NCBI GenBank assembly: GCA_049973735.1
Contig: JBMFJL010000006.1
Coordinates: 1-19,724 of the forward strand
Direction: 5' to 3'
Length of the DNA: 19,724 nt
DNA from: Nanopusillaceae archaeon
GTDB lineage: Archaea; Nanobdellota; Nanobdellia; Nanobdellales; Nanobdellaceae
In this document: positions 1-17,117 of the stretch, piece after piece
How positions within the stretch are numbered: position 1 is the stretch's first letter
Layout of the letters: each line of letters starts with the position of its first letter
Program-made: the position numbers and the translations under genes
Notes under the pieces: generated by a model
The model's input: only the letters and a program-made list of their open reading frames with translations
The model's database searches: none
Told to the model about the DNA's origin: nothing

Positions 1-1208
1 GCTAAGAATGTTATATTATATTGTTGATAGCTATTTACATTTGATGGAGCAGTTATTGTAAATATATAACTACCTCCAGATGTAATATTAACTTGAGTTG
101 GAGAACATGTTACTCCAGAAGGTGGTAAACATTGTAATGTCATATTATTTCCCAGTGTATTATTTGCACTAACATTTATTGAAATAGTTTGTCCTGGATT
201 TACATTTGCAGAAGATTGATTTAAAATGATAGTTAAATTTTCCATTACAGGAACTATAGAAATTGAAGGCATAACTCCATTTGGAGGATATGCAGATATA
301 AATACCCAGTATATATCCTGATATGACCCGGTTATCCATCCAGGAACACGTGTAAGATAAGCAATCGTCGAAGAAGAACTTGAAGAATTTACATTAAGCA
401 AAACAAAATTATATCCTTGAGGTAAAGAGGTATATACAGTATAATAATTTCTATTTGAAATCACCGGAGTTTGATTAGTTATACCAAAATAATTTGTATT
501 ACCATTAGGATATGAATATACATATGTACCTATTAAAAAAGAAGATCCTGCAATTGAAGAAGGTAAACTACGATACAAACCGTAATACCAATAATAAGCT
601 GAAGTTTGTACATACCTAGTATAATTTATGTTATAAGTTACTGAAACAGAACCTAAATTATTCCATCCTGATGGTAAAGAGCTTAAATTACCAAAGTTTT
701 GATAATAATTAAATACGTTATTTCCATTATCATATTGAGAAGTTCCTAATACTTGTATTGGAGCTCCTACATATGGATAGTACAAAACATAGAAATTATC
801 TGAAGTATTTCCAACGTACATATAAATAGTTAAAGTACTATTTGCGGAGATTCCATCTGGCAGTTTTACCCACCAAACGTCACAAAATACCCCATTAATA
901 TTAATTTGACCATTGTACCATGAATACAATATAGAACCGGTTGGATTGAGCAGATTTCTAAAGAAAAATACATTTTGCCCATTTGGATTTATTTTATTAA
1001 ACAATGTAGCATTATTTATATATGAGAAATTGCTTCTTAAACTTACTGTTCCATTACATATTGCTATGTCCTGCTGAAATGGTACTGGTGTAGGACTATA
1101 CTGCGTGTTATATATATTAATTTCATAATATTCTGCTGAGTAAATATTGAATAATAGTAAAAATAAAACAATCAGAGCTCCTAATTTATATATTTTTATT
1201 TTCCTCAT
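1..1208 (-). CDS. Secreted surface protein, N-terminal portion (signal peptide plus DUF2341-like/LamG-like region). The 3' end runs off the window start.
   Basis: This ORF is absent from the supplied track because it has no stop in the window. I translated the reverse strand by hand from ATG 1208-1206, and the frame stays open to base 3. It reads MRKIKIYKLGALIVLFLLLFNIYSAEYYEINIYNTQYSPTPVPFQQDIAICNGT...QCLPPSGVTCSPTQVNITSGGSYIFTITAPSNVNSYQQYNITFLA. The N-terminus is basic then hydrophobic, as in a signal peptide. The segment NGQNVFFFRNLLNPTGSILYSWYNGQININGVFCDVWWVKLPDGISANSTLTIYMYVGN fits my memory of the DUF2341 pattern (DirF..L.yw...vWVKvP...t.iymYyGN). N-x-S/T sequons are frequent. Confidence 0.7.
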   Translation of the reverse strand, partial: MRKIKIYKLGALIVLFLLLFNIYSAEYYEINIYNTQYSPTPVPFQQDIAICNGTVSLRSNFSYINNATLFNKINPNGQNVFFFRNLLNPTGSILYSWYNGQININGVFCDVWWVKLPDGISANSTLTIYMYVGNTSDNFYVLYYPYVGAPIQVLGTSQYDNGNNVFNYYQNFGNLSSLPSGWNNLGSVSVTYNINYTRYVQTSAYYWYYGLYRSLPSSIAGSSFLIGTYVYSYPNGNTNYFGITNQTPVISNRNYYTVYTSLPQGYNFVLLNVNSSSSSSTIAYLTRVPGWITGSYQDIYWVFISAYPPNGVMPSISIVPVMENLTIILNQSSANVNPGQTISINVSANNTLGNNMTLQCLPPSGVTCSPTQVNITSGGSYIFTITAPSNVNSYQQYNITFL

Positions 1209-1232
1209 TTTTCTATATAAAAACTTGAACCC

Positions 1233-1240
1233 ATATAAAA
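1233..1240 (-). promoter_or_regulatory. TATA-like box for the 1-1208 gene
   Basis: The minus strand reads TTTTATAT at -32..-25 relative to the A of ATG 1208. This spacing implies a leaderless or near-leaderless mRNA. Confidence 0.4.
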
Positions 1241-1274
1241 GTTTGTTAACCATAGATGACTATCAAGCACAGTC

Positions 1275-1347
1275 TGGGCCCGGGGGGATTCGAACCCCCG
1301 ACCTTCGGGTTAAAAGCCCGACGCTCTACCAGCTGAGCTACGGGCCC
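1275..1347 (-). tRNA. tRNA-Lys (anticodon UUU), 73 nt, no intron, CCA not encoded
   Basis: The reverse complement is GGGCCCGTAGCTCAGCTGGTAGAGCGTCGGGCTTTTAACCCGAAGGTCGGGGGTTCGAATCCCCCCGGGCCCA. It folds as a perfect cloverleaf with a 7-bp acceptor stem, GCTC/GAGC D stem, TCGGG/CCCGA anticodon stem, loop CTTTTAA, GGGGG/CCCCC T stem and TTCGAAT T loop. G+C is 49 of 73. Confidence 0.95.
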
Positions 1348-1375
1348 TTTATTGATATAAAGTATTTCGAAAATA

Positions 1376-1383
1376 AATATAAA
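1376..1383 (-). promoter_or_regulatory. TATA-like element upstream of tRNA-Lys
   Basis: The minus strand reads TTTATATT at -36..-29 from the mature 5' end (1347). The other two tRNAs carry a similar element in the same register. Confidence 0.35.
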
Positions 1384-1390
1384 TGTATTT

Positions 1391-2086
1391 TTAAGAGAGG
1401 ATATTGTATATTATTGAGTTATTAAAATATGTAAAGAAGCTAATATAATCAGAAATAGTACTAAAATATGTAAGATAAGTAGGATAACCAATCATTTTTT
1501 CTCCATTATATATGTATAAAGAACTTTTATAATCTGTAAATCCTAATAAATTATTTCCAGTTAATATTGAAATTGAGGCGTTATTGCTCAAAATAGCATT
1601 ACAATAATAAAAAGATCTATAATAAATACCATAGTATGAAAATACAGATCCATAAATATTTCTACAATTTAATGTAGCGTTGTTTGTTGTATAATTAAGT
1701 TCACTAAAGAAATTAAAAATGTAGAAATTGACTGATGAATTTAAATTTTTTATTAGAGTAATTTGTACAATATTAATAGATTGATTATCATTGCTATAAT
1801 ATATTTCAATACAATTGGTGCAAGGATAATACTTATAATTCACAAAAATTACAGATGGCTTAGAAACTAAAATAAAAGGATAATTTAAAATATTAGAAGC
1901 ATATTTAATGTCATATCCATTTGTATAATAGAATGTACCTAATAATATTTTTTGAAAGTTATCAATTCTTGAAATATCTACTGAAAAACTACTTAATGAT
2001 CTTATCCATGACATAGTAAAAGTTAATAATACAATTAAAAATATTATAAAGGTTACTAAAAACTCGATCCAGTGTTGACTTTTCAT
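1391..2086 (-). CDS. Membrane-anchored, sequon-rich protein with a type IV pilin-like (class III signal-like) N-terminus
   Basis: The ATG is at 2086-2084, and ATGA overlaps the stop of the upstream T2SSF gene (2083-2086). The N-terminus is MKS/QHWIEFLVTFIIFLIVLLTF: a charged residue and a small residue, then Q at +1 and E at +5, then about 20 hydrophobic residues. The rest is N/Y/S-rich with about 6 N-x-S/T sequons. I recognise no other family. Confidence 0.6.
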   Translation of the reverse strand: MKSQHWIEFLVTFIIFLIVLLTFTMSWIRSLSSFSVDISRIDNFQKILLGTFYYTNGYDIKYASNILNYPFILVSKPSVIFVNYKYYPCTNCIEIYYSNDNQSINIVQITLIKNLNSSVNFYIFNFFSELNYTTNNATLNCRNIYGSVFSYYGIYYRSFYYCNAILSNNASISILTGNNLLGFTDYKSSLYIYNGEKMIGYPTYLTYFSTISDYISFFTYFNNSIIYNILS

Positions 2087-3345
2087 ATTGTAATGTTTAA
2101 TTTTTGTTCTGCAGTATATTTTTGACCATTTAAATCCATTTGTGCTATAATTAAATATTGTCCAGGATCTGTAAATCTTAAAGATGTAGAATAATAGCCA
2201 TTTTGTAATATTTCATTATTCACATAAGAGTAGTTTACATCTATTCCAGTAATATTAAGAATTATCTGTACATTACTAATTGGTATGGCATCTTTTGTTG
2301 CATATATCTGTATATTTACAGGAGAATAAGCATAAGCCGGATTGGGATAAACATTTAATGTAAAACTAACTTGTTCTGGCAATATAAATATTATTATAGA
2401 TAAAATAGCGATAAAAGATGTTATACCTATATGTTTAAAGGAAGATAGTATCTTTCCAGATTCTGCAATACCCATGATTATTGATGTAGAAATTGCTATA
2501 ATTATTATTGATATTTCTGTAACAAATTTAAGTTGTTGATAATTTATATTATAAGAAAATATACTAAAAGTGCTTTTTGTAGATGCAGAAGTAATAAATT
2601 GGGAAGCTATCAATGGTTGTATACTATTTAATATAGATATCATAAGTCCTATGAATATGAGAAATATAGCATATAACACCATTGTTTGCTGTGATATATA
2701 TGCCTTTTTTAGTTTTTCAAGATCCCTTAGGTTTTGAAGATCTGTATATAATCTTTTCAATACTTTAGAAAGATCACCTCCTCCCTTATAAGATTCAAGT
2801 ATAATGTTATTTATTCCTTTTATGTCTGGTATATCATCAAAGTACATATTGAATAAGGAAAAAGCTTTTTCAAATGGATATCCCCACTTAATCCAACTAT
2901 ATAATTTTCTTACAAAATTGGATAAATATCCCAAATCCAAATTGGAAACATAGTATAAAGCATCTAATAGAGTCATACCAGAAGAAAGGCTGTCTGATAA
3001 ATATGACAAGAAGTAAGGATAGTTATCTAATATGTTTTCTCTTATTTTCTCGTTTACATACTTATAAAAAATATAAGGACCGGCACCTACAGCATATATA
3101 ACTAATATTAGAATGGATAGTGATACATAGTTTAAGTATAATTTTAGTATTAAACCAATAATCAATATTATTAATGCTCCAATAATGGAGAATAATAATA
3201 TTACATTTTCCTCTTTTATATAGGTATTTCCAAATTTTATCTTTTTATAGTTTTCAGGTTCATTTATATTTAGCGTAATACCTAGTATATCGAGAAAGGA
3301 TTTCTTTTTCTTTTGAACATTTTTAGGTTTATCTTCTGTAGACAT
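2083..3345 (-). CDS. Single-domain T2SSF (TadC/PilC/ArlJ-like) polytopic membrane platform protein with a C-terminal extracytoplasmic beta-rich domain
   Basis: The ORF is 420 aa starting at ATG 3345. A basic cytoplasmic N-terminus is followed by 2 TM segments and then one T2SSF-type domain (YFLSYLSDSLSSGMTLLDALYYV...ILESYKGGGDLSKVLKRLYTDLQNLRDLEKLKKAYISQQTMVLYAIFLIFIG). Three more TM segments follow, then a 95-aa tail (VSFTLNVYPNP...LNITI). Confidence 0.8.
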   Translation of the reverse strand: MSTEDKPKNVQKKKKSFLDILGITLNINEPENYKKIKFGNTYIKEENVILLFSIIGALIILIIGLILKLYLNYVSLSILILVIYAVGAGPYIFYKYVNEKIRENILDNYPYFLSYLSDSLSSGMTLLDALYYVSNLDLGYLSNFVRKLYSWIKWGYPFEKAFSLFNMYFDDIPDIKGINNIILESYKGGGDLSKVLKRLYTDLQNLRDLEKLKKAYISQQTMVLYAIFLIFIGLMISILNSIQPLIASQFITSASTKSTFSIFSYNINYQQLKFVTEISIIIIAISTSIIMGIAESGKILSSFKHIGITSFIAILSIIIFILPEQVSFTLNVYPNPAYAYSPVNIQIYATKDAIPISNVQIILNITGIDVNYSYVNNEILQNGYYSTSLRFTDPGQYLIIAQMDLNGQKYTAEQKLNITI

Positions 3346-3381
3346 TATATTTTTATTTTACAATCTTGAAATTTAAATATT
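3346..3381. promoter_or_regulatory. 36-bp divergent promoter region with two back-to-back TATA-like boxes
   Basis: TTTTATTTTA at 3351-3360 lies at -31..-22 from ATG 3382. On the minus strand, TTTAAATT at 3370-3377 lies at -32..-25 from ATG 3345. Each box sits next to the other gene's start codon, which implies leaderless transcripts. Confidence 0.4.
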
Positions 3382-4215
3382 ATGGGTATCTTAGATGACT
3401 TATTCGAAGGAATAACTAATGATTATCTATCGGCAGGTTTTAAGAAAAAATTATCTGATTATATAAGAGAAGCTAAGATTTATTCGATTGGTGTAAGTAT
3501 ATCTATAACAATACTGGTATTCTTTTTACTATTATTGTTTATAATGAGATACAAAACTCTTCCGATATATGTTTTGTTTTTAGTACCACTTGTATGGGTT
3601 GTATCTTTCTTTGGTATGCTTTACTTTTTTAGAATTTATCCGAAATTAGTTAAATCTGAAAGGCAAAGAAAAATAGATAATTCGCTATATTATGTTACTT
3701 TATACATGGCAGCTTTAGCATCTTCTGGTGTAAATCCTAAAGTAATGTTTGAATTATTGGCAAAATATAAAGAATTTTCAGAAATTCATAAGGAAGCTAA
3801 AGATATAATATATTTAGTAGATACTGTAGGATTGTCATTACCATTAGCTTTAAAGTATAAAGTAGAGCACTCACCATCCAAAAGATGGGCTTCTATATTA
3901 GAAGGTATTAGGACAATGATCACTGAAGGAGGGGATTTGGAAAGGTATCTGTATGAACAGGCAGCAACTTTAGCAGAGGAGTATAAAAGAAAAATAATAG
4001 AGTATTCAAACAATCTTCAAATATTTTTGGAAATATATATAACTCTTGTTGTAGTAGGTGTAATATTTATAATAGTATTGACAACATTGATGGGTTCTAT
4101 AGCTGGTGGAGGAAATATATTTCTTTTGCAATTAATGAGTGTCTTAATAGTTATGCCAATGGCAACAGCACTCTTTGTAATATTGATTAAAGCTATAAAT
4201 CCATTTGAATCGTAA
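3382..4215 (+). CDS. Single-domain T2SSF membrane protein resembling the N-terminal half of archaellum/pilus platform protein ArlJ (FlaJ)
   Basis: The ORF is 277 aa, with 2 TM segments, one cytoplasmic T2SSF domain and 2 more TM segments. The stretch YVTLYMAALASSGVNPKVMFELLAKYKEFSEIHKEAKDIIYLVDTVGLSLPLALKYKVEHSPSKRWASILEGIRTMITEGGDLERYLYEQAATLAEEYKRKIIEYSNNLQIFLEIYITLVVVG aligns by eye with the first repeat of FlaJ proteins (..YALSRSGM.FP.VM..LA...TPS...G..L..FL..Q...). Confidence 0.85.
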   Translation: MGILDDLFEGITNDYLSAGFKKKLSDYIREAKIYSIGVSISITILVFFLLLLFIMRYKTLPIYVLFLVPLVWVVSFFGMLYFFRIYPKLVKSERQRKIDNSLYYVTLYMAALASSGVNPKVMFELLAKYKEFSEIHKEAKDIIYLVDTVGLSLPLALKYKVEHSPSKRWASILEGIRTMITEGGDLERYLYEQAATLAEEYKRKIIEYSNNLQIFLEIYITLVVVGVIFIIVLTTLMGSIAGGGNIFLLQLMSVLIVMPMATALFVILIKAINPFES

Positions 4216-4881
4216 TTAAGAAATAGAGATATTATTATTCAAAGAATAAAGCGATATAAGATTTTTTACTATTATATCGGTATTATAAACTTTAATTTCT
4301 CCATATTTTAAATTATCATATAGTACATACAATAAGTTCTCTCTTCTATTACTTAAAACATTTAATATTTCTTCTGAAACATTTTTGCTCATATATATTA
4401 TAAGAGTGTTGTTCTGTTCTAATGCATATTCCAATAAAGCATATGATATACCTACAGGTGTAAATTTGTAAGCGCCACAAGAATCTTCAATACATAGTAT
4501 AAATACATATTGAGGATATATTATGCTTAAATTATTATAATATAGCAAATAATTTGCTTTCACAATGGAGTCATTTACTATATAATCATCGATCCTATTT
4601 ATGAAATAATCGGAGTAGTTAGAATTATTAGTAATAATTATTTCATTTCTGCTTTTTAATATTCCGTTAAAATAAATATATGCCAAATCATATCCTGTAA
4701 TATTTAAATATGCATAATCGATTATTTTAGTATCATTTTCAGTTATGTTTACTATGTATGGGAATTTTAATATATAGACAGGAGAAAACAGATATTTATA
4801 AATAATTGATAAAAAAACCATCACAAAAGAAAAAATAATTAGTGCTGTAAGTATTTTGTTTCTAATAGATGACTTCTTCAA
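4216..4881 (-). CDS. Signal-anchored extracytoplasmic protein of unknown function, very sequon-dense
   Basis: The ORF is 221 aa. The track start is TTG (4881-4879), 20 nt inside the end of ndk. The only in-frame ATG/GTG (residues 20/21) would cut the TM segment in half. The basic KKSSIRNK followed by ILTALIIFSFVMVFLSIIY fits the positive-inside rule, so I keep the TTG. I count about 10 N-x-S/T sequons. Confidence 0.55.
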   Translation of the reverse strand: MKKSSIRNKILTALIIFSFVMVFLSIIYKYLFSPVYILKFPYIVNITENDTKIIDYAYLNITGYDLAYIYFNGILKSRNEIIITNNSNYSDYFINRIDDYIVNDSIVKANYLLYYNNLSIIYPQYVFILCIEDSCGAYKFTPVGISYALLEYALEQNNTLIIYMSKNVSEEILNVLSNRRENLLYVLYDNLKYGEIKVYNTDIIVKNLISLYSLNNNISIS

Positions 4882-5458
4882 TGTTTCTATTATAATTATA
4901 TATCTCCTCTGGCTTAAATAAAATGTTTATTTCTCTTTCAGCATCTTTTTCTGTTTCAGATGCATGTACGACATTTCTTAATACAATTTTATTCCAGTTA
5001 GCATATGCAATTGACATGTGTGCAAAATCTCCTCTAATAGTTCCAGGTGGTGCTTTTAAAGGTTCTGTAGGACCTACTAGTTTTCTTACAACCTCTACTG
5101 CATTAACACCTTCCAATACAATGCAGACGACAGGGTCTGATGTTATAAAATCTATAAGCCATTTTCTTATTGTTTTACCTATTTCTAATGGATCATCTGT
5201 ACCAAATTCTTCCTTTGGATTAAGACCAAGTTCTAGGTATCTAGAAAGAGTTTTATTTCCAACAGATACTAACCAAAGATCATCAGCATGATAAAACTTT
5301 TCTGCTTGTTCTTTACTCATCTTGATCATTTTTAATCCAACTATTTTTAGTCCAGCTCTTTCAAATCTACTTATAATTTCTCCTATTATTGATCTTTTTA
5401 CACTATCTGGTTTAATGACTACAAGTGTTCTTTGTACAAGATGTCTTCCAGCTGTCAT
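4862..5458 (-). CDS. ndk: Nucleoside diphosphate kinase, long form with an internal insertion
   Basis: Diagnostic matches are [43 protein letters not shown] and the active-site NVVHASE. The gene sits downstream of rps28e-rpl24e, as in the conserved archaeal cluster. At 198 aa it is about 50 aa longer than the usual protein, owing to an insertion after EKFY. Confidence 0.9.
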
Positions 5459-5637
5459 TTGTTTTTGTTATAATATTTAGTCCATTTATATTTTCTATTA
5501 TCCCTTTTCATTTCCCAATATCTATAACATTTTCTACTACAAAAGTATAATACTTTTCCATCATTCAGTGCATAAATTAATCCAGTACCAGGCTCAATTT
5601 CATTTCTACAATAAGAACAGATATTTTTTACTATCAT
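5455..5637 (-). CDS. rpl24e: 50S ribosomal protein L24e
   Basis: The ORF is 60 aa. It has a CxxC...CxxxC zinc ribbon ([35 protein letters not shown]) and an ATGA overlap with ndk. Confidence 0.9.
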
Positions 5638-5638
5638 T

Positions 5639-5932
5639 TTAGTCTTTCTTTTCTATTGGCATTGCAGATATTTCCGTTTCTCTAAGCACAATAATATCTC
5701 CTTTTCTTACCGGTCCTATAACATTTCTTCTTAGTATTTTTCCTGCATCCTGACCATCTAATACTCTAACAATAACGTGAGTAGCTTCTCCCCTCATTCC
5801 TGTTCTACCAACAATATCTATTATTTCTGCTCTATAGGATTTACTCCAAGTTACTGTATTTTCCCTAATGACGTTATCTTCAGCATGTTTGATACCTTCT
5901 TCAGAAACTTTGCTTACCATCTTTTTTGGCAT
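5639..5932 (-). CDS. rps28e: 30S ribosomal protein S28e with an N-terminal extension of about 25 aa
   Basis: The core is [53 protein letters not shown]. It lies 1 nt upstream of rpl24e. Confidence 0.9.
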
Positions 5933-5983
5933 ATAACTAAGTCTTATGAATAATTTTTAAATTTTCTACCTAAAATAGTAGAA
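5933..5983. promoter_or_regulatory. 51-bp divergent promoter with a single central symmetric TATA-like element
   Basis: TTTTTAAATTTT occupies 5954-5965, and its TTTAAA core (5956-5961) is centred at 5958.5. The midpoint between the two start codons (5932 and 5984) is 5958. The element reads TTTAAAAA at -29..-22 for rps28e and TTTTAAAT at -29..-22 for aglB. Confidence 0.45.
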
Positions 5984-8900
5984 ATGGCGTTATTAAATAT
6001 AAACAAAAAAACAATATTAAGTATACTCATCGAGATCGCTATAATCTTTTCAATAGTAGCTATAACAATAGGATCAAAAGGTTTGCTTGTTAATGCACTA
6101 GGAAACTATAATTTAGTTGGTCCCGATGCTTATTATTTCTTTAAATTGTTTCATGAATTACTAACTACTCATTCCCTTTCTGATTTGACATATAATTTAT
6201 ATTACCCATTGTTTCAGCCTTTAAATAATAAAAATCTTGTTATATATTTTACATATTTAATACATTATCTAATAAATAACTTTTTATCTTATGCATCTTT
6301 TGTAAATATACTACATTACTTTGGAATATATCCAGCTGCAACTGAACCAATTTGGGTTGTAGTAGATTTTACTAATGTGTATATACCTGCAATTGCTGCA
6401 ATAATATTTTACTTCTTATCAAAAAGAATATTTGAAGATAAATATATTGCATTTTTTGCATCAATAGTATTTGCCATAAATCCATTTTTAACTACTAGAT
6501 TAGTTTTATATGGTACAGAATTGGGAGCTTTTATATTTATTGTTTTATCCTTTTACTTCATTATCAAATATGTGGAGAGTGTAAATGAAAAGAATAAATA
6601 TAAAAGACTATTTTTGTTATTATATTCATTAATTTCATTAATTTTATTTTATCATGTATCCATGCTACCAAATTATAATGTACCTTTAGTTATGTTAACA
6701 TTTGCAGAGTTCTTTGCTTTACTACTCTTATATCCAATATTTAAAGGAACTAAAGAATATTATCTAACTCTTTTGATATTTAGTACTACGCTAGCTAGAG
6801 AAGGGTGGGGAGGATGGATAATTATACCATTGGCATTGGGATTGTTTTCTCTGTTTAGATTTTTATTGGCTAAAGATAATTATGAAATCTATTATTATTT
6901 ACCATATATAGGATTTACAGGAATTTTGGATTATTTAGAAAATATAGATTCAGAAATGCACCATTTATTTTTATCTTCTCATAATTTAATTATGATAATT
7001 CCGGCAGTTTTGCCATATATTTATATGCTAATAAAAGATAAAGATTTATTTAATAAAATAAATAATGTAACTTTAGGTAGATTTATAAGAGAACAAGAGA
7101 TATCTAAAAGAATATTGCTAATAATATTATTATCTATTTTAGCTTTACCAAGATTCTTTAATTTATTTGTGGAGAACTTGTTAAATAATCCATTTATAAG
7201 TGAAAGGATGGGATTTACTATTGCAGAATATCAAGCAACTCCCGCATCTTTTTATCTAGGTCTTATGGGTTCTGTAGGAGTAATATTTACTTATTTAGGA
7301 TTAGCAAATATTATATTTGATAAAGATAAACCAAAGAAGATACTATATATACAATATATGTTTGTATTGTTAATTTCTTTGGCTGAATTAATATTTTCTG
7401 GCTCTTTAATAGTTTTAGGAATATTACTACTATTATATTATATTTTAGTTATGTCTATATCAGATAAAGATGAAGGAAAAGTTCTGAGAAAATCTATAAT
7501 TGAATTAACTATTTTATCTTTATCATTACAATTTGTTTTGTTTTCAGATATAATCATAGGAAGTTCCTTTATAAGTATATTCATATCTTGGATAATGTTA
7601 CTTTTTGTTGTCACCGGATATATAATAATATCTAATAGAAAATTAACAGATAAAGAATTATTCATTTTATCTTTGTCGATTATATCTCTTGTTGTTGGCA
7701 AATATGTATATAGATTAGTATACTATTCAGGATTTGTTATTCCATTTTTAGTAGCATATGGAGTAGAATCGTTCAATATATTTAGAGAAGATTTTGATAA
7801 ATTGAAAAAAGTTGTAAAAATAGTACCAGTCATATTTCTATTAATACTAGCAGCCATTTCGGGATATAACGCCGGAAACTATTTACATAGTTTCTACTCA
7901 TATATTGGGAGAGGAATTGCAGAAATGAATGTAAATGCGATAATACCAATATATATCATTATCATAATACCTTTTGCATTTTTACTATCATATATATTCT
8001 ATGAATTAATTTTAGGAAAAGAAATTAACAGATTCAATATGATCAAATATGGAATATTCCTTTTAGTAATCTATGGAGTACTACTATATCCAGTAAAAAG
8101 TTCAGATTTACATCAAAGTTATTTGCTTTACAATTATATATCGCCAATTGGAGTTGCTGGTTCAGGAACTCCCTCTTATGAGATTAATACATTTCTATGG
8201 ATTAGATATAATACACCTGAAGATGCAATAATTAATTCCTGGTGGGATTATGGTTATTACATATTTACTTTAGGAAATAGAACTGCTTGGGTCACCGGAT
8301 CAAATCAATATCCATATTGGAATCACTTAATGGGTAGATATGGTTTGTCTTCTACAAATATAACTGAAACATTACAACTATTTTATGTTCATGCAAATTA
8401 TAACTATCAAACATTTAAAACATTAGAATTATTTAATGAAAATTCTGTATTTTATGATTATATATATGACAAACTAGGATTTTCTAAAGAAGAAGTAAAT
8501 AATATAAAGAATATAAAAAACAGGCTAGGTTACAATAATTGGATAAAATTATTATATCAATTCAACGGATCAGAGAGTTCTATTTACCAATTTAATTTAT
8601 CTAAAGAAGAACTTTACCTATTAAATAAATTGTACAATATGAGTTATTTAAGGCCTGCATATTTCTATATAGATCCAACAGATATAGGTAAATCTACAGC
8701 ATTTCAATTTTTAGGATCAAACAGCAGTTATGATAAAGAGAGTTGGATAAGTGTATTACAATCGTTTGTAGATACAAATCCTGGAATGAATTTCCCAGCA
8801 GTATATTATAATGGATATTATGTACTTGCTACAAATAATAGTCTATTCTACGTAGGACAAATACCACTAGATCAAGATCTATACATAGATGGAAATTTGA

Positions 8901-9532
8901 TACAAAGATGTTTATATAAAGAACCAATAGGAATAATAAATAAAAATTCTTGTGGTGTAATATTTCAGGTCCAATTATTATTTAATCAATCAATTGTAAT
9001 TCAAAGCGGAATATATCAGAATTTGGATGTTGCTAAAATAAATCCAAACAATTTAGTTGGTGCAAATATATATGTATATAATCCAGTAACCAGTAAATAT
9101 CATGTTCTTTCATTAAAGTATGTATACTTTGCTGGAGAGTTGATAGAATTTAAAAATGCAACATATGGAGGAATGCTATATATTTCCCCATCTTATTCAA
9201 TGTTAGCCTCTGGAAATTTATTGGGATTGTTCGGATATGCACACTTTATAACAGAAAAAGCATTTAACTACGATTGGATACAATTATATTTCTTGAATAA
9301 TGATTATAATGGTACATTTAATTTAGCATACTACAGTAATCAGGAATATGGACTTGGTCCTCTGATATATATTGATATACCACCGGCAAAAGTATGGAAA
9401 GTAAACTTTCCATCAAATTTCACAGTACCAGATCATTTATATTGTCTATATCTAGCGACAAATCTGAATCAGATAAATGAATGTGCAAAGATATATAACT
9501 TAAAACCATTTAAAACACATTATGATGTATGA
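5984..9532 (+). CDS. aglB: Archaeal oligosaccharyltransferase AglB (STT3 family), unusually long at 1182 aa
   Basis: The WWDYG motif is at 8240-8254 (residues 753-757). The EL5-type TIAE motif is at 7217-7228 (residues 412-415). An acidic EL1 residue lies in GPDAYYF (D48). YGTELGAFIF resembles the STT3 YDNEGIAIF segment. A candidate DK motif, YFYIDPTDIGK, is at 8681-8692. Many TM segments precede WWDYG. Confidence 0.92.
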   Translation: MALLNINKKTILSILIEIAIIFSIVAITIGSKGLLVNALGNYNLVGPDAYYFFKLFHELLTTHSLSDLTYNLYYPLFQPLNNKNLVIYFTYLIHYLINNFLSYASFVNILHYFGIYPAATEPIWVVVDFTNVYIPAIAAIIFYFLSKRIFEDKYIAFFASIVFAINPFLTTRLVLYGTELGAFIFIVLSFYFIIKYVESVNEKNKYKRLFLLLYSLISLILFYHVSMLPNYNVPLVMLTFAEFFALLLLYPIFKGTKEYYLTLLIFSTTLAREGWGGWIIIPLALGLFSLFRFLLAKDNYEIYYYLPYIGFTGILDYLENIDSEMHHLFLSSHNLIMIIPAVLPYIYMLIKDKDLFNKINNVTLGRFIREQEISKRILLIILLSILALPRFFNLFVENLLNNPFISERMGFTIAEYQATPASFYLGLMGSVGVIFTYLGLANIIFDKDKPKKILYIQYMFVLLISLAELIFSGSLIVLGILLLLYYILVMSISDKDEGKVLRKSIIELTILSLSLQFVLFSDIIIGSSFISIFISWIMLLFVVTGYIIISNRKLTDKELFILSLSIISLVVGKYVYRLVYYSGFVIPFLVAYGVESFNIFREDFDKLKKVVKIVPVIFLLILAAISGYNAGNYLHSFYSYIGRGIAEMNVNAIIPIYIIIIIPFAFLLSYIFYELILGKEINRFNMIKYGIFLLVIYGVLLYPVKSSDLHQSYLLYNYISPIGVAGSGTPSYEINTFLWIRYNTPEDAIINSWWDYGYYIFTLGNRTAWVTGSNQYPYWNHLMGRYGLSSTNITETLQLFYVHANYNYQTFKTLELFNENSVFYDYIYDKLGFSKEEVNNIKNIKNRLGYNNWIKLLYQFNGSESSIYQFNLSKEELYLLNKLYNMSYLRPAYFYIDPTDIGKSTAFQFLGSNSSYDKESWISVLQSFVDTNPGMNFPAVYYNGYYVLATNNSLFYVGQIPLDQDLYIDGNLIQRCLYKEPIGIINKNSCGVIFQVQLLFNQSIVIQSGIYQNLDVAKINPNNLVGANIYVYNPVTSKYHVLSLKYVYFAGELIEFKNATYGGMLYISPSYSMLASGNLLGLFGYAHFITEKAFNYDWIQLYFLNNDYNGTFNLAYYSNQEYGLGPLIYIDIPPAKVWKVNFPSNFTVPDHLYCLYLATNLNQINECAKIYNLKPFKTHYDV

Positions 9533-10532
9533 AAACTTGATTCTTGGAGTAATACCTCCAATTATATCTTTTTTTATCAGTTATTTGTTAATTAAAAAGT
9601 GGATACCAATAGCTAAAGAAAAAGGATATGTAGGAAAAGATATGAATAAATATGATAAACCAGAAGTTGCAGAAATTGGTGGATTATATTCTATAATAGG
9701 CATAATATTTGGACTTTTAATATACATTGGACTAAAAGTATATATATTTAATACAACTGAAAATTTAGTACATGTTTTTGCAATAACCACTTTATTATCG
9801 CTTGTAACAATATTAGGGTTATTTGATGATATATTAGGATGGAAAAAAGGGTTAAAACCTTGGCAAAAGCCAATAATGACTCTAATTTTATCATTACCAT
9901 TAGTTATAATTTCTGTAGGAGTATCTACAATTAACTTTCCATTTATAGGAAAAGTTGATTTAGGGATATTATTTCCATTGTTACTTATACCAATAATAAT
10001 TACGGGTACATCGAACGCATTCAATATGATAGCCGGATATAATGGATTAGAAGCTTTAATGGGTATATCGCTTATAGGTGCATTGGGTATAAAATTCTAT
10101 CAATTAGGTTATTACTATTTAGCAGAAATATCATTAATAACAGTATCTTCAATTTTGGCATTTTTAATATTCAACAAATATCCAGCAAAGGTATTTCCTG
10201 GAAATGCATTTACCTATGGAATTGGTTCTCTATTTGGAACCTTAGTTATTTTGGGAGATATAGAACAATTTGGACTAATATTATTTATCTTGTATTTCTT
10301 AGAATTATTCTTATTTATAAGAGGATTATTAAATGGTGTATATAAAGAAAATTTTGGAATACCAAATGAAAATAATGAATTGGACGAACCATATGATAAA
10401 ATATACAGTGTAACTCATTTAGCAATAAAAATAAACAAAAAACTCTTTAAAAAAGCAACAGAAAAAAGTGTTGTTTATACAATAGTATTCTTGCAAATAA
10501 TTATTACAATAATAGCTTTTATTTATGGATAA
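9522..10532 (+). CDS. aglH: Dolichyl-phosphate GlcNAc-1-phosphate transferase, AglH/ALG7/WecA-MraY (GT4 polyprenyl-phosphate) family
   Basis: The ORF is 336 aa and polytopic. Family motifs present are LFDDILGWKK (DD motif), NAFNMIAGYNGLEA (variant of NxxNxxDGxDGL) and FPGNAFTYGIG. It overlaps aglB by 11 nt. Confidence 0.85.
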   Translation: MMYENLILGVIPPIISFFISYLLIKKWIPIAKEKGYVGKDMNKYDKPEVAEIGGLYSIIGIIFGLLIYIGLKVYIFNTTENLVHVFAITTLLSLVTILGLFDDILGWKKGLKPWQKPIMTLILSLPLVIISVGVSTINFPFIGKVDLGILFPLLLIPIIITGTSNAFNMIAGYNGLEALMGISLIGALGIKFYQLGYYYLAEISLITVSSILAFLIFNKYPAKVFPGNAFTYGIGSLFGTLVILGDIEQFGLILFILYFLELFLFIRGLLNGVYKENFGIPNENNELDEPYDKIYSVTHLAIKINKKLFKKATEKSVVYTIVFLQIIITIIAFIYG

Positions 10533-12306
10533 ACTAGTATATATCTTTTTCGGTAGCGATTACAGAAAGCTATATTATAACTTATATTTTTTGTATAGGT
10601 TTTGTAAAAAAAATAATTTAGAATTATTATGTATAACAAAAAAGGAAAACAAGGAAAATGTAATTAAAATAAAAAATAAAATAAATATAAAGTTTTATTT
10701 AGTAGAAAATATAAAAGATATAAGAAAAATAAAAATAGAAGGGAAATTTGTAGCCATATATGAAAAAATTAATATAAATCTAAGAGATTTAAAGTATATA
10801 TATAATAATATAGAAAAAGGAAAAATGATTTTGGTTAAGAAAAATTTTTTTGGAAGCTTCCTTTATAATCCATTTATAGTTGGAGGTTATAACATAAATT
10901 TATATGAGAACATAATCAAAATGATAATAAAAAATGAAAGAAAATCCATAAATTTAGATTACAAGCTTGGAAAAGATTTTTTATATATATTTTATGTAAA
11001 TCTAAAAATATACAAAATATTCTTTTGGAAAATAATGGATGTCTTGCTAAAAAAGAAATATATAAGAGATTACATAAATGAAAAAATAGGATTAATTTTA
11101 TATAAGATATTTACATTTATTTTAACAGTAATTTTGGTTAGAATATTGACTCAAGACTTTTATGGTGCATACATCGCTATATACAATTTCATATTAATAT
11201 TGTCCGGATTTATGGGTATTACTAATACTTTGCTTATGAAGAAAATGTCTGAAAATATAAAAAATGAAGAAGAAATAGAAAAATACATAAAAGTAGATAT
11301 ATATTCTAAGGCCATATTTTTTGTTTTAGCTTTAATAATAATATCTCTATTTTCTTATTATATTCTTGAGAACATATTTGTTTATTATAGTATATACTAT
11401 TTGTATTTATCATATGCTATTGCAATATTAATTGTATTAGATGGCGCTTTCTTTTCAATACTATATTCCTATCTAGATATTAAAAAAGTGAGAAATTTTC
11501 TAATATTAGAATCCTTGTTCAAATTGATTTTCATATCATTATTTGCATACATATTAAAAAAGAGTGGATTCTTAATAGGAATGTTTATAGCTTACTTGGT
11601 ATTTGATTCTATATTATTTTATTATGTTATGAAAAAATATGGAAAAATAATATTAAATAGTTTAAATAAAAAAACATATTTAAGGGATATAAAAGAATAT
11701 TTAAAGTTATCAATTTATTTAAATATAATTCCATTTATAGTAAGTGCATATTCTAGCTTTGAAATACAAATAATAAAAATATTTACCTCATTTAAGGAAT
11801 TAGGGTTGTTTTACAACGCAAATTTAATAGTATCAACAATTTCATCAATATTTTCTGTCGGTGGTATATCATTACCAAGAATATTAAGATGGGATGATAG
11901 AAAATTAAAGGAAAATATAAATAAAATAGTTTTATTTCAATTATTTATAAACATAGTTTTATTTTTCATGTTAGTATTGCTAGGACCTTACATTATAATT
12001 TTATTTTTTGGAGAATCATATCTATTATCAGCAGATCTATTAAAATATCTATCTTTAATAATAATAATCCAATCCTTTAATATATATTCTCTATTACTAT
12101 ACAGAAAAGGAATGGAAAAATATTATTCAATATATTTTGTTTTATCAGTTATATTTTCCTTTATATTTGATATCTTTTTGATATATTATTATGGTGTATG
12201 GGGCGCGGTGTATTCAATAATATTGGCAAATCTAACCAATGCATTAATATCGTATGGAATATATAAAATAAAATATGATAACATCTCTACCAGATCTGTT
12301 CATTGA
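10525..12306 (+). CDS. Wzx/MOP-superfamily oligosaccharide flippase-like protein with an extra N-terminal region of about 170 aa
   Basis: Residues from about 171 to 593 look like polysaccharide-biosynthesis/flippase family proteins. They begin MDVLLKKKYIRDYINEKIGLILYKIFTFILTVILVRILTQDFYGAYIAIYNF and carry about 12 TM segments. The N-terminal 170 aa are K/N/I-rich and soluble. The gene overlaps aglH by 8 nt. Confidence 0.7.
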   Translation: MDKLVYIFFGSDYRKLYYNLYFLYRFCKKNNLELLCITKKENKENVIKIKNKINIKFYLVENIKDIRKIKIEGKFVAIYEKININLRDLKYIYNNIEKGKMILVKKNFFGSFLYNPFIVGGYNINLYENIIKMIIKNERKSINLDYKLGKDFLYIFYVNLKIYKIFFWKIMDVLLKKKYIRDYINEKIGLILYKIFTFILTVILVRILTQDFYGAYIAIYNFILILSGFMGITNTLLMKKMSENIKNEEEIEKYIKVDIYSKAIFFVLALIIISLFSYYILENIFVYYSIYYLYLSYAIAILIVLDGAFFSILYSYLDIKKVRNFLILESLFKLIFISLFAYILKKSGFLIGMFIAYLVFDSILFYYVMKKYGKIILNSLNKKTYLRDIKEYLKLSIYLNIIPFIVSAYSSFEIQIIKIFTSFKELGLFYNANLIVSTISSIFSVGGISLPRILRWDDRKLKENINKIVLFQLFINIVLFFMLVLLGPYIIILFFGESYLLSADLLKYLSLIIIIQSFNIYSLLLYRKGMEKYYSIYFVLSVIFSFIFDIFLIYYYGVWGAVYSIILANLTNALISYGIYKIKYDNISTRSVH

Positions 12307-13147
12307 CATAATAATAAGGGATATCTCAATTGAAAAAAGTACAGGAAATATAAATAAAGATATAAAGGTAAAGATTGGAGGAAATGCGGCTAATTTTTCA
12401 ATTGCTTTATCTATGTTGGGAATAAAAAACAATTTAATTGCAGGATGTAATAAATTTTCTGAAAAATTTTTGAAAGATTTTATAAAAGAAAATAAATTAA
12501 AGATAAAATTTTATCCAATATACAAAGATCTATCAATTACAATAGCAATAGAAAAGGAAAACGATAGAATAATGATAACAGATCCAAAAGGGATACAAAT
12601 AGGAAAAGAGGAAATTGAAAAATATAATAAAATAATAAAAAGATCTGATTATATTTTCATTGGAAATTGGAATAATAACAAGAAATCCAATGAATTAATT
12701 AAATACATTATCGAATCTAGTAATGCAAAAATATATTTAGATATTGGGGATCCGTCAATTAATTTAGAAAACTTAAGTGAATTAGTAAGAATATTAAAAG
12801 AAAATTCTATATGGGTTTTGAGTTTAAATGAATATGAACTGAAGTTCCTTGGAGATTTCTTAAAAATAAAATATGACGATATTATAGATCTAGCTAATAA
12901 ATTATATTTTGAATTAAATGTAAAGAATTTAGATTTGCATTCCCCAGATTTTGTTTATTCTTTACCATCAAAAGAATATGTAAAAGTAGATAGAGTCCAG
13001 CCAAAAATAGTTACAGGTGCAGGAGACTATTGGAATGCAGCAAACTTTTATGGTTACATTAAAGGGTTTAATGATTTGGAAAGGTTAAAATTTGCGAATG
13101 AATTCGCTAAAAAGTATGTTTCGGGAAGCGCCCCCGCCGGGACTTGA
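12275..13147 (+). CDS. PfkB-family (ribokinase-like) sugar or nucleoside kinase
   Basis: GGNAANFSIALSMLG matches PfkB signature 1 and VTGAGDYWNAANFYG matches signature 2 (GAGD anion hole). The start overlaps the flippase gene by 32 nt. The last 19 nt (13129-13147) are antisense to tRNA-Asp. Confidence 0.8.
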   Translation: MITSLPDLFIDIIIRDISIEKSTGNINKDIKVKIGGNAANFSIALSMLGIKNNLIAGCNKFSEKFLKDFIKENKLKIKFYPIYKDLSITIAIEKENDRIMITDPKGIQIGKEEIEKYNKIIKRSDYIFIGNWNNNKKSNELIKYIIESSNAKIYLDIGDPSINLENLSELVRILKENSIWVLSLNEYELKFLGDFLKIKYDDIIDLANKLYFELNVKNLDLHSPDFVYSLPSKEYVKVDRVQPKIVTGAGDYWNAANFYGYIKGFNDLERLKFANEFAKKYVSGSAPAGT

Positions 13148-13201
13148 ACCCGGGACCACGGGATCGACAGTCCCGCATGCTTCCTACTACACCACGGGGG
13201 C
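13129..13201 (-). tRNA. tRNA-Asp (anticodon GUC), 73 nt, no intron, CCA not encoded
   Basis: The reverse complement is GCCCCCGTGGTGTAGTAGGAAGCATGCGGGACTGTCGATCCCGTGGTCCCGGGTTCAAGTCCCGGCGGGGGCG. The acceptor stem is GCCCCCG/CGGGGGC, the anticodon stem CGGGA/TCCCG with loop CTGTCGA, and the T arm CCGGG-TTCAAGT-CCCGG. The D stem contains two G-U pairs. Confidence 0.93.
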
Positions 13202-13741
13202 TAGATTATTATTTATGTACGATTTTATTTTATAAAATATTTCTTCTGAGTAAGTATTTTTATATTTTTTTAATAAATCTATTAAATCAGTTTTAAATTC
13301 TAAAATTCTCTCTTTTATTAAATATTGAATAAATTGGGTTAAATTAGAAGGTTTGTCTTTGATTTTTGCTCTTTCCCAATCAATTAAATATATTTTATTT
13401 TCTTTTATAATTATATGTTCATATGGTCTCTGCATTTCCTCTTTTTCTATCTTTAATTTATCTAATAAAAATAATATATCAAGTATTCTATCTATATATT
13501 TAATCTTTTCATTAATATTCAAGTCTTTAAATTTTTTTCCATCAATAAATTCCATTTCAATTTCTAAGTTGCTATCATCATAACTTATAATTTTTGGAAC
13601 GAATCCGTAATCTTTTAAGAAATTTAAAAAATATTTTTCTTTTTCATAATTTTTTGTCAATCCTTTTTTAAACCTCTTTATTATTGTATTTCTTTCTGTC
13701 AAAAAAATTTCTGAGTGCCAACCTTCATCTATCTTCTTCAT
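13187..13741 (-). CDS. Small atypical protein-kinase-fold protein (Bud32/RIO/COG2112-like) with a non-canonical catalytic loop
   Basis: The ORF is 184 aa. IDEGWHSEIFL occupies the G-loop position, IIKRFKKG supplies the lysine, EIEMEFIDGKKFKDL looks like a hinge, and KIYLIDWERAK sits at the DFG-equivalent position. Where HxDxxxxN is expected the sequence is IEKEEMQRPYEHIII. There is an ATGA overlap with thrS. Confidence 0.55.
   Translation of the reverse strand: MKKIDEGWHSEIFLTERNTIIKRFKKGLTKNYEKEKYFLNFLKDYGFVPKIISYDDSNLEIEMEFIDGKKFKDLNINEKIKYIDRILDILFLLDKLKIEKEEMQRPYEHIIIKENKIYLIDWERAKIKDKPSNLTQFIQYLIKERILEFKTDLIDLLKKYKNTYSEEIFYKIKSYINNNLAPVV
13230..13237 (-). promoter_or_regulatory. TATA-like element upstream of tRNA-Asp, inside the 3' end of the kinase-like CDS
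   Basis: The minus strand reads TTTTATAA at -36..-29 from the tRNA 5' end (13201). Confidence 0.35.
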
Positions 13742-15108
13742 TCAAATATAAAGTTGAAATCTTCAAATACTCTATATTTCTTATTGTTTAATTCAAATAC
13801 CGGTTCTTCAAGTTTTTCTATTAAATTAATCAACCCATTTATATCTCCCTTTATCTCTTTTACAGACCTTTCTTTTATATCATAATATCTTATTGAATAT
13901 TCTCTATTAATTATTTCTCTTTCTCCAATATATAGTATTATAGATGGTTTATATATAGATTCTAATATTCTTGTTGTATTACTCAGTTCAACTTTAGATG
14001 TATCAATTTTTACTGTCCTTATTTCCATATTCCTTAATTTGTTGAAAACTTCCTCTGCAACTTCTTTTATTTTTTTATCTTTTTCTTCATTTCCGGTATT
14101 TATTTCAAGTACAACAACTTGTAATGGATTTAAAACAAAAGGTAACCTTCCTTTGAATGACTCCAGATATACACCCAAAAATCTTTCAATAGAACCCAAA
14201 TATGCTCTGTGTATTATATATAAATTATCAATTCCAAAGTAATCTTTGACTAATTCAATTAGTCTAAAGTTTCTTGGTAAATTAAAATCTAGCTGTATTG
14301 TACCAAGCTGCCATTCTTTTTCACCAATTTTCAATGTAAAATCATATTTTGGTCCATAGAATGCTGCTTCTCCTATACCTTCATATGTTGAGAAATTATA
14401 TTTCTTAGATAATTTTTCCAATACTTTCCTCATTATATTCTCTACATATTCCCAATCCTCTTTCTTTCCAGAATATTCTTCCATCTTATTTGGATCATGC
14501 AAACTCAACCTTACTTTAAATTCTGATCTTTTAAGATCTATACTAAACAATTTTTCATATAGCAATATCATTTCATCTAATAGTTTCTCTATTTCTTTTT
14601 CTAATAATTCTGGTGTGATAAATACATGAGAATCATCTTGAGTGAAAGATCTTATTCTTAATAAACCATAAACGCTACCGGATGGTTCATATCTGTGAAC
14701 AGTTCCCAATTCGAATGTTCTAAAAGGTAACTTTATTTTTCTATATTTCTCTAGTAGGTTAATGAATATTAATATATGGTGTGGACAGTTCATTGGCTTT
14801 ATTGCGAATTCATCTTCTTCTATTTTAAAAATATACATGTTTTGCTTATAGTATGATAAATGACCAGAAATCTTGTACAATTCTGTATTTGTGATTAATG
14901 GAGATCTTACAAGATGATACCCTCTCTTTAAATGAAAATCTGTTAATATGTTTGATATAACATAATAATATATAGCACCACCTAGAGAAAATAATTGCAA
15001 TCCTTTACCCAAAAGATCTCCAAAATTTCTGTTTAATTTTTCTAACCTTCTGTCATGTCTAACCAAAATATCTAATTCGTCTCCTATAGATATATGATCT
15101 TTTTCCAT
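13738..15108 (-). CDS. thrS: Threonyl-tRNA synthetase, catalytic plus anticodon-binding domains only (no N-terminal editing domain)
   Basis: ThrRS motifs present are DHISIGDELDIL, AIKPMNCPHHILIF, RIRSFTQDDSHVF, GEAAFYGPKYDF, QLGTIQLDFNLPRNF and IIHRAYLGSIERFLGVYLE. The zinc ligands C/H/H are conserved. The 456-aa protein begins directly at the start of the catalytic core. Confidence 0.92.
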   Translation of the reverse strand: MEKDHISIGDELDILVRHDRRLEKLNRNFGDLLGKGLQLFSLGGAIYYYVISNILTDFHLKRGYHLVRSPLITNTELYKISGHLSYYKQNMYIFKIEEDEFAIKPMNCPHHILIFINLLEKYRKIKLPFRTFELGTVHRYEPSGSVYGLLRIRSFTQDDSHVFITPELLEKEIEKLLDEMILLYEKLFSIDLKRSEFKVRLSLHDPNKMEEYSGKKEDWEYVENIMRKVLEKLSKKYNFSTYEGIGEAAFYGPKYDFTLKIGEKEWQLGTIQLDFNLPRNFRLIELVKDYFGIDNLYIIHRAYLGSIERFLGVYLESFKGRLPFVLNPLQVVVLEINTGNEEKDKKIKEVAEEVFNKLRNMEIRTVKIDTSKVELSNTTRILESIYKPSIILYIGEREIINREYSIRYYDIKERSVKEIKGDINGLINLIEKLEEPVFELNNKKYRVFEDFNFIFE

Positions 15109-15130
15109 TAAAATTAAATTATTAAAATTC

Positions 15131-15601
15131 TTATAAATTTATTTTTTTTATCTCGTAGTATACTATCTCTTTTTCAATATCAATAATTCCTAATATTATT
15201 TTATCAAGTCCGTATTTATCCATAATTTCTAATATTTCTTTTACATATAGTAGTTCCTGTTCGAATATTGGATAGATATAATAAGAAATTTTTTCTTTTT
15301 TTTCATTTTCATAAACAACTATGAAAATGTCTCTAATTTCTGTATAATATCCCTTATTTCTTAAATCTTCAAAAACATAATATTTTTTGAAATCTATTTT
15401 ATCATAATATTTTTCTAGAAATTCCTCAAAATTTTTTATATTTTCAATCGTTATCCAACCTTTTTTTAGGCAATATAATACCTCTTCCGGATCTAAATAA
15501 ATGTATTCTTTTTCCATTTTCCCAATTCTTCCTATTTTATCATAATATTTTTTATCTAATATAAATTTGTTATTCAGAATTTTAACTAAAGCTTTTTCCA
15601 T
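15131..15601 (-). CDS. tRNA-splicing endonuclease, structural (beta-type) subunit
   Basis: The ORF is 156 aa and overlaps the end of the catalytic-subunit gene by 16 nt. It has the EndA-like layout (YYVFEDLRNKGYYTEIRD...YIYPIFEQE...) but lacks the Y/H/K catalytic triad context. This matches the heteromeric endonucleases of Crenarchaeota and Nanoarchaeota. Confidence 0.65.
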   Translation of the reverse strand: MEKALVKILNNKFILDKKYYDKIGRIGKMEKEYIYLDPEEVLYCLKKGWITIENIKNFEEFLEKYYDKIDFKKYYVFEDLRNKGYYTEIRDIFIVVYENEKKEKISYYIYPIFEQELLYVKEILEIMDKYGLDKIILGIIDIEKEIVYYEIKKINL

Positions 15602-16014: not shown

Positions 16015-16035
16015 TGAAAGAATATTGTGTTATAA

Positions 16036-16043
16036 TTATAAAA
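16036..16043 (-). promoter_or_regulatory. TATA-like box for the endA-thrS operon
   Basis: The minus strand reads TTTTATAA at -29..-22 from ATG 16014. Confidence 0.4.
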
Positions 16044-16090
16044 ATTTTCTATTCCATTATTATTTAAATTTAGAGATGCTTTAAATTTAT

Positions 16091-16885: not shown

Positions 16886-16904
16886 AGAAAATTATAGAAA
16901 ATTA
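16885..16904. repeat. Perfect 10-bp tandem duplication (TAGAAAATTA x2) abutting the nucleotidyltransferase start codon
   Basis: Bases 16885-16894 are identical to 16895-16904. The first copy shares base 16885 with the ATG (16885-16883, minus strand). Confidence 0.6.
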
Positions 16905-17073: not shown

Positions 17074-17101
17074 GATATATTAAAAATCTATATTAGAAAA
17101 A

Positions 17102-17109: not shown

Positions 17110-17117
17110 AATTTCTG

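Follow-up and report, generated by a model that had tools for sequence, protein, structure and literature searches.

Two divergently transcribed genes on contig JBMFJL010000006.1 of a Nanopusillaceae archaeon (assembly GCA_049973735.1, positions 1 to 19,724) most probably encode the two-gene type IV pilus-like platform of "Locus 1" of DPANN archaea (an acronym of Diapherotrites, Parvarchaeota, Aenigmarchaeota, Nanoarchaeota, Nanohaloarchaeota), with the assembly ATPase acting in trans after fragmentation of the operon. The whole stretch of 19,724 nucleotides (nt) that was analyzed is called the window. Throughout, A denotes the platform protein of 277 amino acids (aa) encoded at 3382..4215 on the plus strand, and B denotes the 420-aa platform protein encoded at 2083..3345 on the minus strand; B is followed on its own strand by a gene for a pilin-like protein of 231 aa (1391..2086). 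An earlier reading made from the sequence alone (the original prediction) had placed the three open reading frames (ORFs) at these same coordinates, had called them an orphan filament module, and had offered two explanations for the pair: an archaellum platform split into two halves or a separate Tad/Epd-like filament.

Both proteins belong to the T2SSF superfamily. Pfam detected a single PF00482 domain in A (residues 107 to 233, nt 3700 to 4080, E value 6e-13) and a single one in B (residues 112 to 239, nt 2629 to 3012, E value 1.5e-14), with scores of 49.2 and 54.5 bits, respectively, against a gathering cut-off of 25.2, so that each ORF carries one repeat and neither carries two, as originally proposed. 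Hydropathy analysis gave four transmembrane (TM) helices for A and five for B, the same counts as published for the orthologs of Candidatus Nanopusillus acidilobi. The AlphaFold model of A is all-helical (predicted local distance difference test [pLDDT] 87.5), and its one cytoplasmic domain superposes on the solved domains of EpsF (2VMB), PilC-N (2WHN), and OutF (5NBG) with TMt values of 0.6 to 0.72; in a sequence search of the PDB, only EpsF and OutF were matched, marginally. The T2SSF core of the B model is confident (pLDDT > 90), and the T2SSF fold expected of the two proteins is thus present in both models. B ends in an immunoglobulin (Ig)/macroglobulin (MG)-like β-sandwich (residues 326 to 419, nt 2089 to 2370) that is predicted to be extracellular, and this sandwich and spurious helical matches made up most of what the B model retrieved in a fold search; the protein contains three N-glycosylation sequons. 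The same layout had been ascribed to A and B, which holds for their one T2SSF domain each but not throughout, since B has a fifth TM helix and the C-terminal sandwich. The sandwich is also found in outgroup Nanoarchaeia B proteins, whereas the B proteins of other DPANN archaea lack it and have in its place a Cys-containing loop between TM helices. Nanopusillaceae B proteins share an N-terminal cytoplasmic extension of ~40 residues (3225 to 3345 of the window, minus strand) with a conserved P-E-x-Y-x-K motif, which is not found in outgroup B proteins, which still adjoin their ATPase.

A and B correspond to opposite halves of larger platform proteins. The ArlJ models of NCBIfam align with A over their N-terminal half (model positions 15 to 248 of 555) and with B over their C-terminal half (190 to 453 of 465), which explains the likeness between A and the first half of ArlJ/FlaJ that had earlier been seen by eye. 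An exhaustive profile search with the A family returned 2,514 relatives. Of the best 150 representatives, ~100 have a single domain and a length of 250 to 350 aa and a minority are fused; the top 60 are all single-domain proteins of ~280 to 300 aa. In the fused relatives, local hidden Markov models (HMMs) of A and B fit the N-terminal and C-terminal half, respectively, which identifies A as the N-type and B as the C-type half of a platform occurring both as two genes and as one fused chain. The window therefore contains two adjacent genes, each with one T2SSF domain, that match the two halves of fused platforms. The A and B profiles are barely alignable with each other, and their comparison is not significant (E value 0.048), which argues that the halves diverged long ago and against a recent lineage-specific split. 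Many relatives of A (P0161, P0163, P0200, P0220, and similar proteins) carry N-terminal extensions of 150 to 750 aa without any Pfam domain; these chains contain a single A-type module and no B-type half.

Species-representative genomes were scanned with an alignment of A, and the 18 loci obtained were annotated with local A, B, and ATPase profiles. Every Nanopusillaceae genome sampled (Nanobdella aerobiophila, YN1, N. acidilobi, Nanobsidianus Nst1, Nanoclepta minutus, and ten metagenome-assembled genomes [MAGs]) has B and A as a divergent pair and lacks an ATPase gene within 10 kb of it, and in the two outgroup genomes of the scan ATPase, A, and B stand in line. More distant A homologs (P0030 and P0032, 37 to 40% identity, the latter labeled Nanoarchaeia by NCBI) lie on contigs where a thermosome or fibrillarin gene, small proteins, a PF01917-type pilin of 155 aa, a ~300-aa protein, a T2SSE ATPase with a PilB3-like C terminus, A (287 aa), B (370 aa), and two proteins with pilin-like N termini are encoded in one direction. 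A fused A-B protein is preceded by an ATPase and followed by a Pilin_N protein. The operon order in other DPANN archaea is ATPase, A, B, and pilin-like gene on one strand, usually after thermosome, coiled-coil protein, and pilins; the platform genes there follow directly on a VirB11/FlaI-family ATPase gene, but they do so neither in the window nor in any of the Nanopusillaceae. The second of the two original explanations, that of a separate Tad/Epd-like filament with a two-gene platform, is upheld.

The location of the missing ATPase is indicated by an intermediate genome (L024), in which the divergent pair is accompanied, 8 kb away, by an ATPase gene flanked by an RPA-like gene, a 1-TM gene, SbcD, and SbcC. 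These are also the neighbors of Nps_01175, the N. acidilobi ATPase without a neighboring platform (PMC4935971), save for one extra N. acidilobi gene, which encodes an exosome subunit. A metagenome scan with the L024 ATPase as query returned two groups of contigs. About 20 contigs of 22 to 26% G+C encode thermosome, a 183-aa protein, a 280-aa protein with an MKSQ N terminus, a 594-aa ATPase, RPA-like protein, SbcD, and SbcC, and contain neither A nor B. Contigs of other DPANN archaea, with 30 to 56% G+C, encode thermosome and both of these protein types, in many cases a pilin, and then ATPase, A, and B. We detected no T2SSE ATPase or A24 peptidase in the window by ORF and Pfam checks, so that the reported lack of an ATPase and a prepilin peptidase beside the pair extends to the whole window. 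The description of the module as an orphan is accurate locally, but synteny points to a partner ATPase whose gene would lie in another part of the genome.

The thermosome-linked half of the split locus (L030 to L047; for example, L033 at 8146 to 8697 and 8729 to 9571) keeps the 183-aa coiled-coil-type protein and the 280-aa protein. Outgroup counterparts of the latter begin with MKSQS or MRSQS, the same N-terminal type as in the 231-aa protein of the window, which makes the 280-aa-type proteins candidate pilins of the same filament. At 5320 to 7580 (minus strand) of L024, the SbcC/Rad50-like protein is encoded by two consecutive ORFs of 362 and 379 aa and in Nanopusillus contigs by a single 751-aa ORF; the former arrangement may reflect splitting of the gene or a fault in the assembly.

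Published data for N. acidilobi fit this arrangement. B is 57% identical to Nps_01915, and the supplement of Wurch et al. (2016) lists Nps_01915 and Nps_01920 as "Flp pilus assembly protein TadC" (arCOG01808) with 5 and 4 TM helices (PMC4935971). The gene order there, Nps_01910 (1 TM), Nps_01915, Nps_01920, Nps_01925 (1 TM), NDK, L24e, S28e, and AglB (PMC4935971), is the gene order of the window, and the neighbors and TM counts mark Nps_01915/Nps_01920 (equivalent to Nst1_571/Nst1_572) as direct orthologs of the pair. The two genomes nevertheless represent different genus-level lineages with 57 to 65% identity, and in the window the pyrophosphorylase gene does not adjoin the module and a tRNA-Lys gene follows the pilin-like gene. 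N. acidilobi also encodes a separate "Archaeal flagella assembly protein J" (Nps_02340, arCOG01809, 10 TM), FlaI and FlaH (Nps_00925 and Nps_00930) together with FlaD/E, and three further adjacent ATPase-platform pairs (PMC4935971). Its five ATPases and five platforms therefore leave, beyond the adjacent pairs, FlaI to go with FlaJ and Nps_01175 to go with Nps_01915/Nps_01920.

The gene downstream of B is joined to it by an ATGA overlap at 2083 to 2086, which bears out the translational coupling noted originally. Its 231-aa product has one N-terminal hydrophobic helix by hydropathy and six N-glycosylation sequons, and it begins with MKS followed by QHWIE, a class III (prepilin-type) signal motif with Glu at +5 and a predicted cleavage site between MKS and QHWIE. 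N termini with [KR][GAS] ahead of the cleavage site and Q...E(+5) behind it are the class III signal type of euryarchaeal pilins. Ten orthologs share the pattern M-[KR]-[GS]-[QI]-[SH]-W-I-E followed by a hydrophobic helix, with W-I-E and four Cys residues invariant, in keeping with the pilin-like N terminus noted originally. No match was found in Pfam or NCBIfam for the 231-aa protein. In other DPANN archaea, the gene after B encodes proteins with KGQxS/TIEFL-type N termini (including KGQxSIEFL), and the 231-aa gene is their positional counterpart. When the 231-aa family was compared with the outgroup post-B genes using hhalign, the N-terminal 41 residues aligned with a probability of 85% and an E value of 6e-6; BLAST of the 231-aa protein and of a 221-aa protein encoded on the other side of the pair against the outgroup operon proteins gave nothing significant. 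The 231-aa protein is probably a pilin-like subunit of minor type, made together with B.

The start codons of A and B are divergent, as first described, and lie 36 bp apart (3346..3381) rather than 37. This intergenic region contains two TATA-like elements, TATAYTTTTAWTTT by the B start codon and the perfect palindrome ATATTTAAATAT by the A start codon, each AT-rich box being located ~26 to 30 nt upstream of the start of the opposite gene. The pattern CAT-TATAYTTTTAWTTT-(6-8 nt)-AATATTTAAATAT-ATG recurs in Nanobdella, YN1, Nanopusillus, Nanobsidianus, and Nanoclepta. In a 12-locus alignment, the boxes are nearly invariant in ten Nanopusillaceae loci, from Nanobdella to Nanoclepta, and are not kept in MC1 and L024, the two most divergent loci of the alignment; across genera (the window and L011 to L026), the 36-bp region varies less than the adjoining coding sequence. 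It may be a compact bidirectional promoter producing leaderless divergent mRNAs, a suggestion that accords with the geometry of the two putative TATA boxes and is founded chiefly on their conservation, as AT-rich matches alone mean little at 25% G+C. A, B, and the 231-aa gene are under purifying selection, with ratios of nonsynonymous to synonymous substitution rates (dN/dS) of 0.09 to 0.20 among close Nanopusillus genomes (dS 0.2 to 0.55).

The system type, the two-gene platform, and the annotation of the orthologs have been published before, and the locus is a lineage-specific rearrangement of a known system. According to Makarova et al. (2016, PMC4858521), several clades of archaeal type IV pili commonly have two tadC-like genes; the same authors argue that ATPase/TadC modules can be combined with pilin sets in trans. 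Jarett et al. (2018) reported four FlaJ/TadC homologs and distinct pilus and archaellum systems in Nanoarchaeota (PMC6142677), and Hamm et al. (2024) described Locus 1 of cluster-2 DPANN archaea as GroEL, coiled-coil protein, FlaF, PilA, CpaF, and TadC (PMC11291902). The families and order of that locus are those of the outgroup loci found here; the Nanopusillaceae locus differs in being broken after the ATPase and in the inversion of A. The breaking up of operons is a known trait of Nanoarchaeota, where split genes are also frequent. The impression that the arrangement had never been described therefore does not extend to two-gene TadC platforms, to TadC-annotated orthologs, or to Locus 1, but it does agree with our reading of the literature in one respect: we found no description of the break after the ATPase, the inversion of one platform gene, or the conserved head-to-head arrangement with its shared promoter-like region in Nanopusillaceae.

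Several better-known machines resemble the pair in architecture. The Epd pili of Methanococcus, which have two TadC components (PMC4858521), likewise combine two single-T2SSF platform proteins with class III pilins of the Q(+1)...E(+5) type; unlike the pair in the window, Epd and clade-2 platform genes share an operon with their ATPase. TadB and TadC of bacterial Tad/Flp pili follow the same logic, with two single-repeat T2SSF proteins in place of one two-repeat PilC. This likeness is architectural and does not show close kinship, and the ATPase of the system considered here is of the archaeal FlaI/VirB11 type. No bacterial TadB/TadC model was among the NCBIfam matches at E values up to 1, which comprised only the archaeal ArlJ, UpsF, and BasF models and weak matches to HofC. 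ArlJ/FlaJ belongs to the same superfamily but is a single chain of ~550 aa with 9 to 10 TM helices and both T2SSF repeats and has ArlI and ArlH as partners, whereas each ORF of the pair has one repeat.

If the pair operates as other members of the family do, A and B would each contribute one cytoplasmic T2SSF domain and TM helices to a pseudo-dimeric unit like the single-chain PilC, GspF, or ArlJ. By analogy with the family, this unit would be docked beneath a hexameric assembly ATPase, and an unlinked peptidase would process the prepilins that pass from the membrane into the growing filament. The driver would be the thermosome-linked hexameric ATPase encoded at a distant gene, within the Locus 1 system conserved across cluster-2 DPANN archaea, in which the genes for thermosome, coiled-coil protein, and pilins are joined by those for a VirB11/FlaI-family ATPase, two TadC proteins, and a pilin-like protein. 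The 231-aa protein could serve as a co-translated minor or initiating subunit, the extracellular β-sandwich of B may touch the base of the filament or the cell envelope, and the pilus would probably serve in host attachment. The simplest history suggested by the gene orders is that, in the ancestor of Nanopusillaceae, the operon was cut directly after the ATPase gene, which stayed by the thermosome gene, and that A, B, and the pilin-like gene were relocated and A was inverted, so that A and B would now share a 36-bp bidirectional promoter region. After such a cut, the ATPase and the peptidase would act in trans.

Several points weigh against assigning the pair to Locus 1 with an ATPase in trans. 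The 231-aa protein shows recognizable homology to the outgroup post-B genes in no more than its N-terminal 41 residues, and the gene table of N. acidilobi does not name a prepilin peptidase. The orthology of the ATPases is based on synteny and profile scores, and no Nanopusillaceae ATPase paralog was among the 120 matches listed of the 7,805 obtained with an outgroup ATPase as query. The ATPase, FlaJ, and peptidase of this particular genome are presumed from sister genomes. Domain content, folds, orthology, synteny, and selective constraint are established by the analysis, whereas the pairing of A with B, the choice of their ATPase, promoter function, pilin processing, and the biological role are what we infer.

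Separation of the pair from any ATPase, both physically and transcriptionally, could also mean that the platform has been re-purposed or is shared, serving several of the five ATPases or a role other than pilus assembly, for example in protein secretion or host contact, with the extracellular Ig-like domain of B as the functional novelty. The ~40-aa N-terminal extension of Nanopusillaceae B, its extracellular β-sandwich, and the published argument that modules and pilin sets can be combined in trans (PMC4858521) are in keeping with such a change. We consider it unlikely, however, because outgroup B proteins in the canonical operon also carry the β-sandwich, the five ATPases and five platforms of N. 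acidilobi fit one-to-one pairing, and no sequence feature indicates another function. A more specific proposal is that the platform is independently regulated and perhaps shared by the orphan pilus ATPase and, for example, the orphan FlaI, as a switch between host attachment and motility in an obligate ectosymbiont. It draws on the separation of the platform and ATPase genes, the putative bidirectional leaderless promoter, and the N-terminal extension of B, and seems to us quite improbable.

The other original explanation, that A and B are the N-terminal and C-terminal halves of an ArlJ split apart and working with ArlI/ArlH and the archaellin 13 kb off, is largely refuted and must be regarded as very unlikely. 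It has in its favor that the best NCBIfam matches are ArlJ models, with A on the N-terminal and B on the C-terminal half, that Nanoarchaeota are known for split genes, that the orthologs are labeled FlaJ in some databases, and that the window contains an archaellin. The scores are nevertheless low, 96.3 bits for A against 550 (NF004704) and 61.5 for B against 400 (NF004705), a comparison in which half a protein can attain roughly half of the score at best and which includes no Nanopusillaceae FlaJ as positive control. Seven fused two-domain relatives and three with long N-terminal extensions, all non-archaellar DPANN platforms, score alike on the ArlJ models, so that these matches mean superfamily membership only. 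N. acidilobi has its separate 10-TM FlaJ in arCOG01809, whereas the pair falls in arCOG01808 (TadC), and FlaJ is absent from the published lists of split genes. Single-domain A and B are widespread in DPANN archaea beside an ATPase below the FlaI cut-off: the outgroup ATPases score 420 to 430 bits against an equivalog cut-off of 550, and the operon contains no KaiC-like ArlH gene. The old separation of the A and B profiles likewise argues against a recent split. It is scarcely credible that A and B are decaying, functionless paralogs left after loss of the ATPase neighbor, as might be supposed from the lack of a nearby ATPase and peptidase, the strongly reduced genomes of the lineage, and one Nanoarchaeota FlaJ/TadC homolog dense in nonsynonymous single-nucleotide polymorphisms (PMC6142677), given that the frames are intact, the arrangement is kept in all sampled genera (Nanobdella, YN1, Nanopusillus, Nanobsidianus, and Nanoclepta), dN/dS is 0.09 to 0.20, dozens of residues are invariant, the promoter-like intergenic elements are conserved, and the T2SSF cores are modeled at high confidence.

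Type IV pili rank among the foremost candidates for the structures that attach DPANN ectosymbionts to their hosts. For annotation of, and experiments on, cultivated Nanopusillus, Nanobdella, and Nanoclepta, assignment to Locus 1 implies that the "FlaJ/T2SSF" pair belongs to the conserved DPANN pilus locus and not to the archaellum, that its ATPase is probably the thermosome-linked one, and that the pilin-like gene travels with the pair. It also implies that, where operons have broken up in Nanoarchaeota, a complete system can seem orphan on a short contig. No new type of machine is revealed, and the interest of the locus is modest, lying only in the lineage-specific rearrangement.

The remainder of the window has a gene set that fits terrestrial Nanoarchaeota, with AglB, NDK, L24e, S28e, threonyl-tRNA synthetase, an archaellin, and three tRNAs, at a G+C content of ~25%. 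Two small tRNA-splicing-endonuclease-like genes are also present, and the three tRNAs are the only Rfam matches. The archaellin, which had been placed ~13 kb from the pair, was located at 17118 to 17978 by its PF01917 match (E value 5e-21). Convergent with A lies the gene for the 221-aa protein mentioned above (4216..4881, minus strand), a membrane protein with a single N-terminal helix as anchor (hydropathy) and ten sequons, for which no family match was found and in which Pfam detected no T2SSF domain. Among 15 Nanopusillaceae loci checked, 14 carry the gene and L025 does not. It begins before the NDK gene has ended, which suggests that it is probably part of the S28e-L24e-NDK transcription unit, and its membership in the pilus module is uncertain.

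The NDP-sugar (nucleoside diphosphate-sugar) pyrophosphorylase gene, which in YN1, Nanoclepta, and N. acidilobi directly adjoins the pilin-like gene, is found 14 kb away in the window (16091 to 16885, minus strand); in the loci used for comparison it occupies 319 to 1113 of L001 and 7285 to 8073 of L004. The pilin-like gene is followed instead by tRNA-Lys (1275 to 1347) and a secreted-protein gene, a further local rearrangement. The latter gene (3..1208, minus strand) shares the strand of B, is situated downstream of B, the 231-aa gene, and tRNA-Lys, and is cut by the left contig end, leaving a partial product that spans at least 402 aa and has a signal peptide of the Sec type (MRKIKIYKLGALIVLFLLLFNIYSA, followed by EYYE), many N-x-S/T sequons, and a weak DUF2341 match. 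The first 1.1 kb looks free of ORFs, but the gene there extends past the contig end; repeats within 1 to 1400 are at chance level only. The secreted protein is probably the counterpart of N. acidilobi Nps_01900 (arCOG06957, "uncharacterized secreted protein"), which adjoins the module there. It is possibly a surface or adhesin component, and its membership in the module is uncertain. At the right contig end, a sequon-rich partial ORF of at least 185 aa (19166 to 19724, minus strand), cut by that end, occupies the place of a 1-TM protein and a second archaellin in N. acidilobi.

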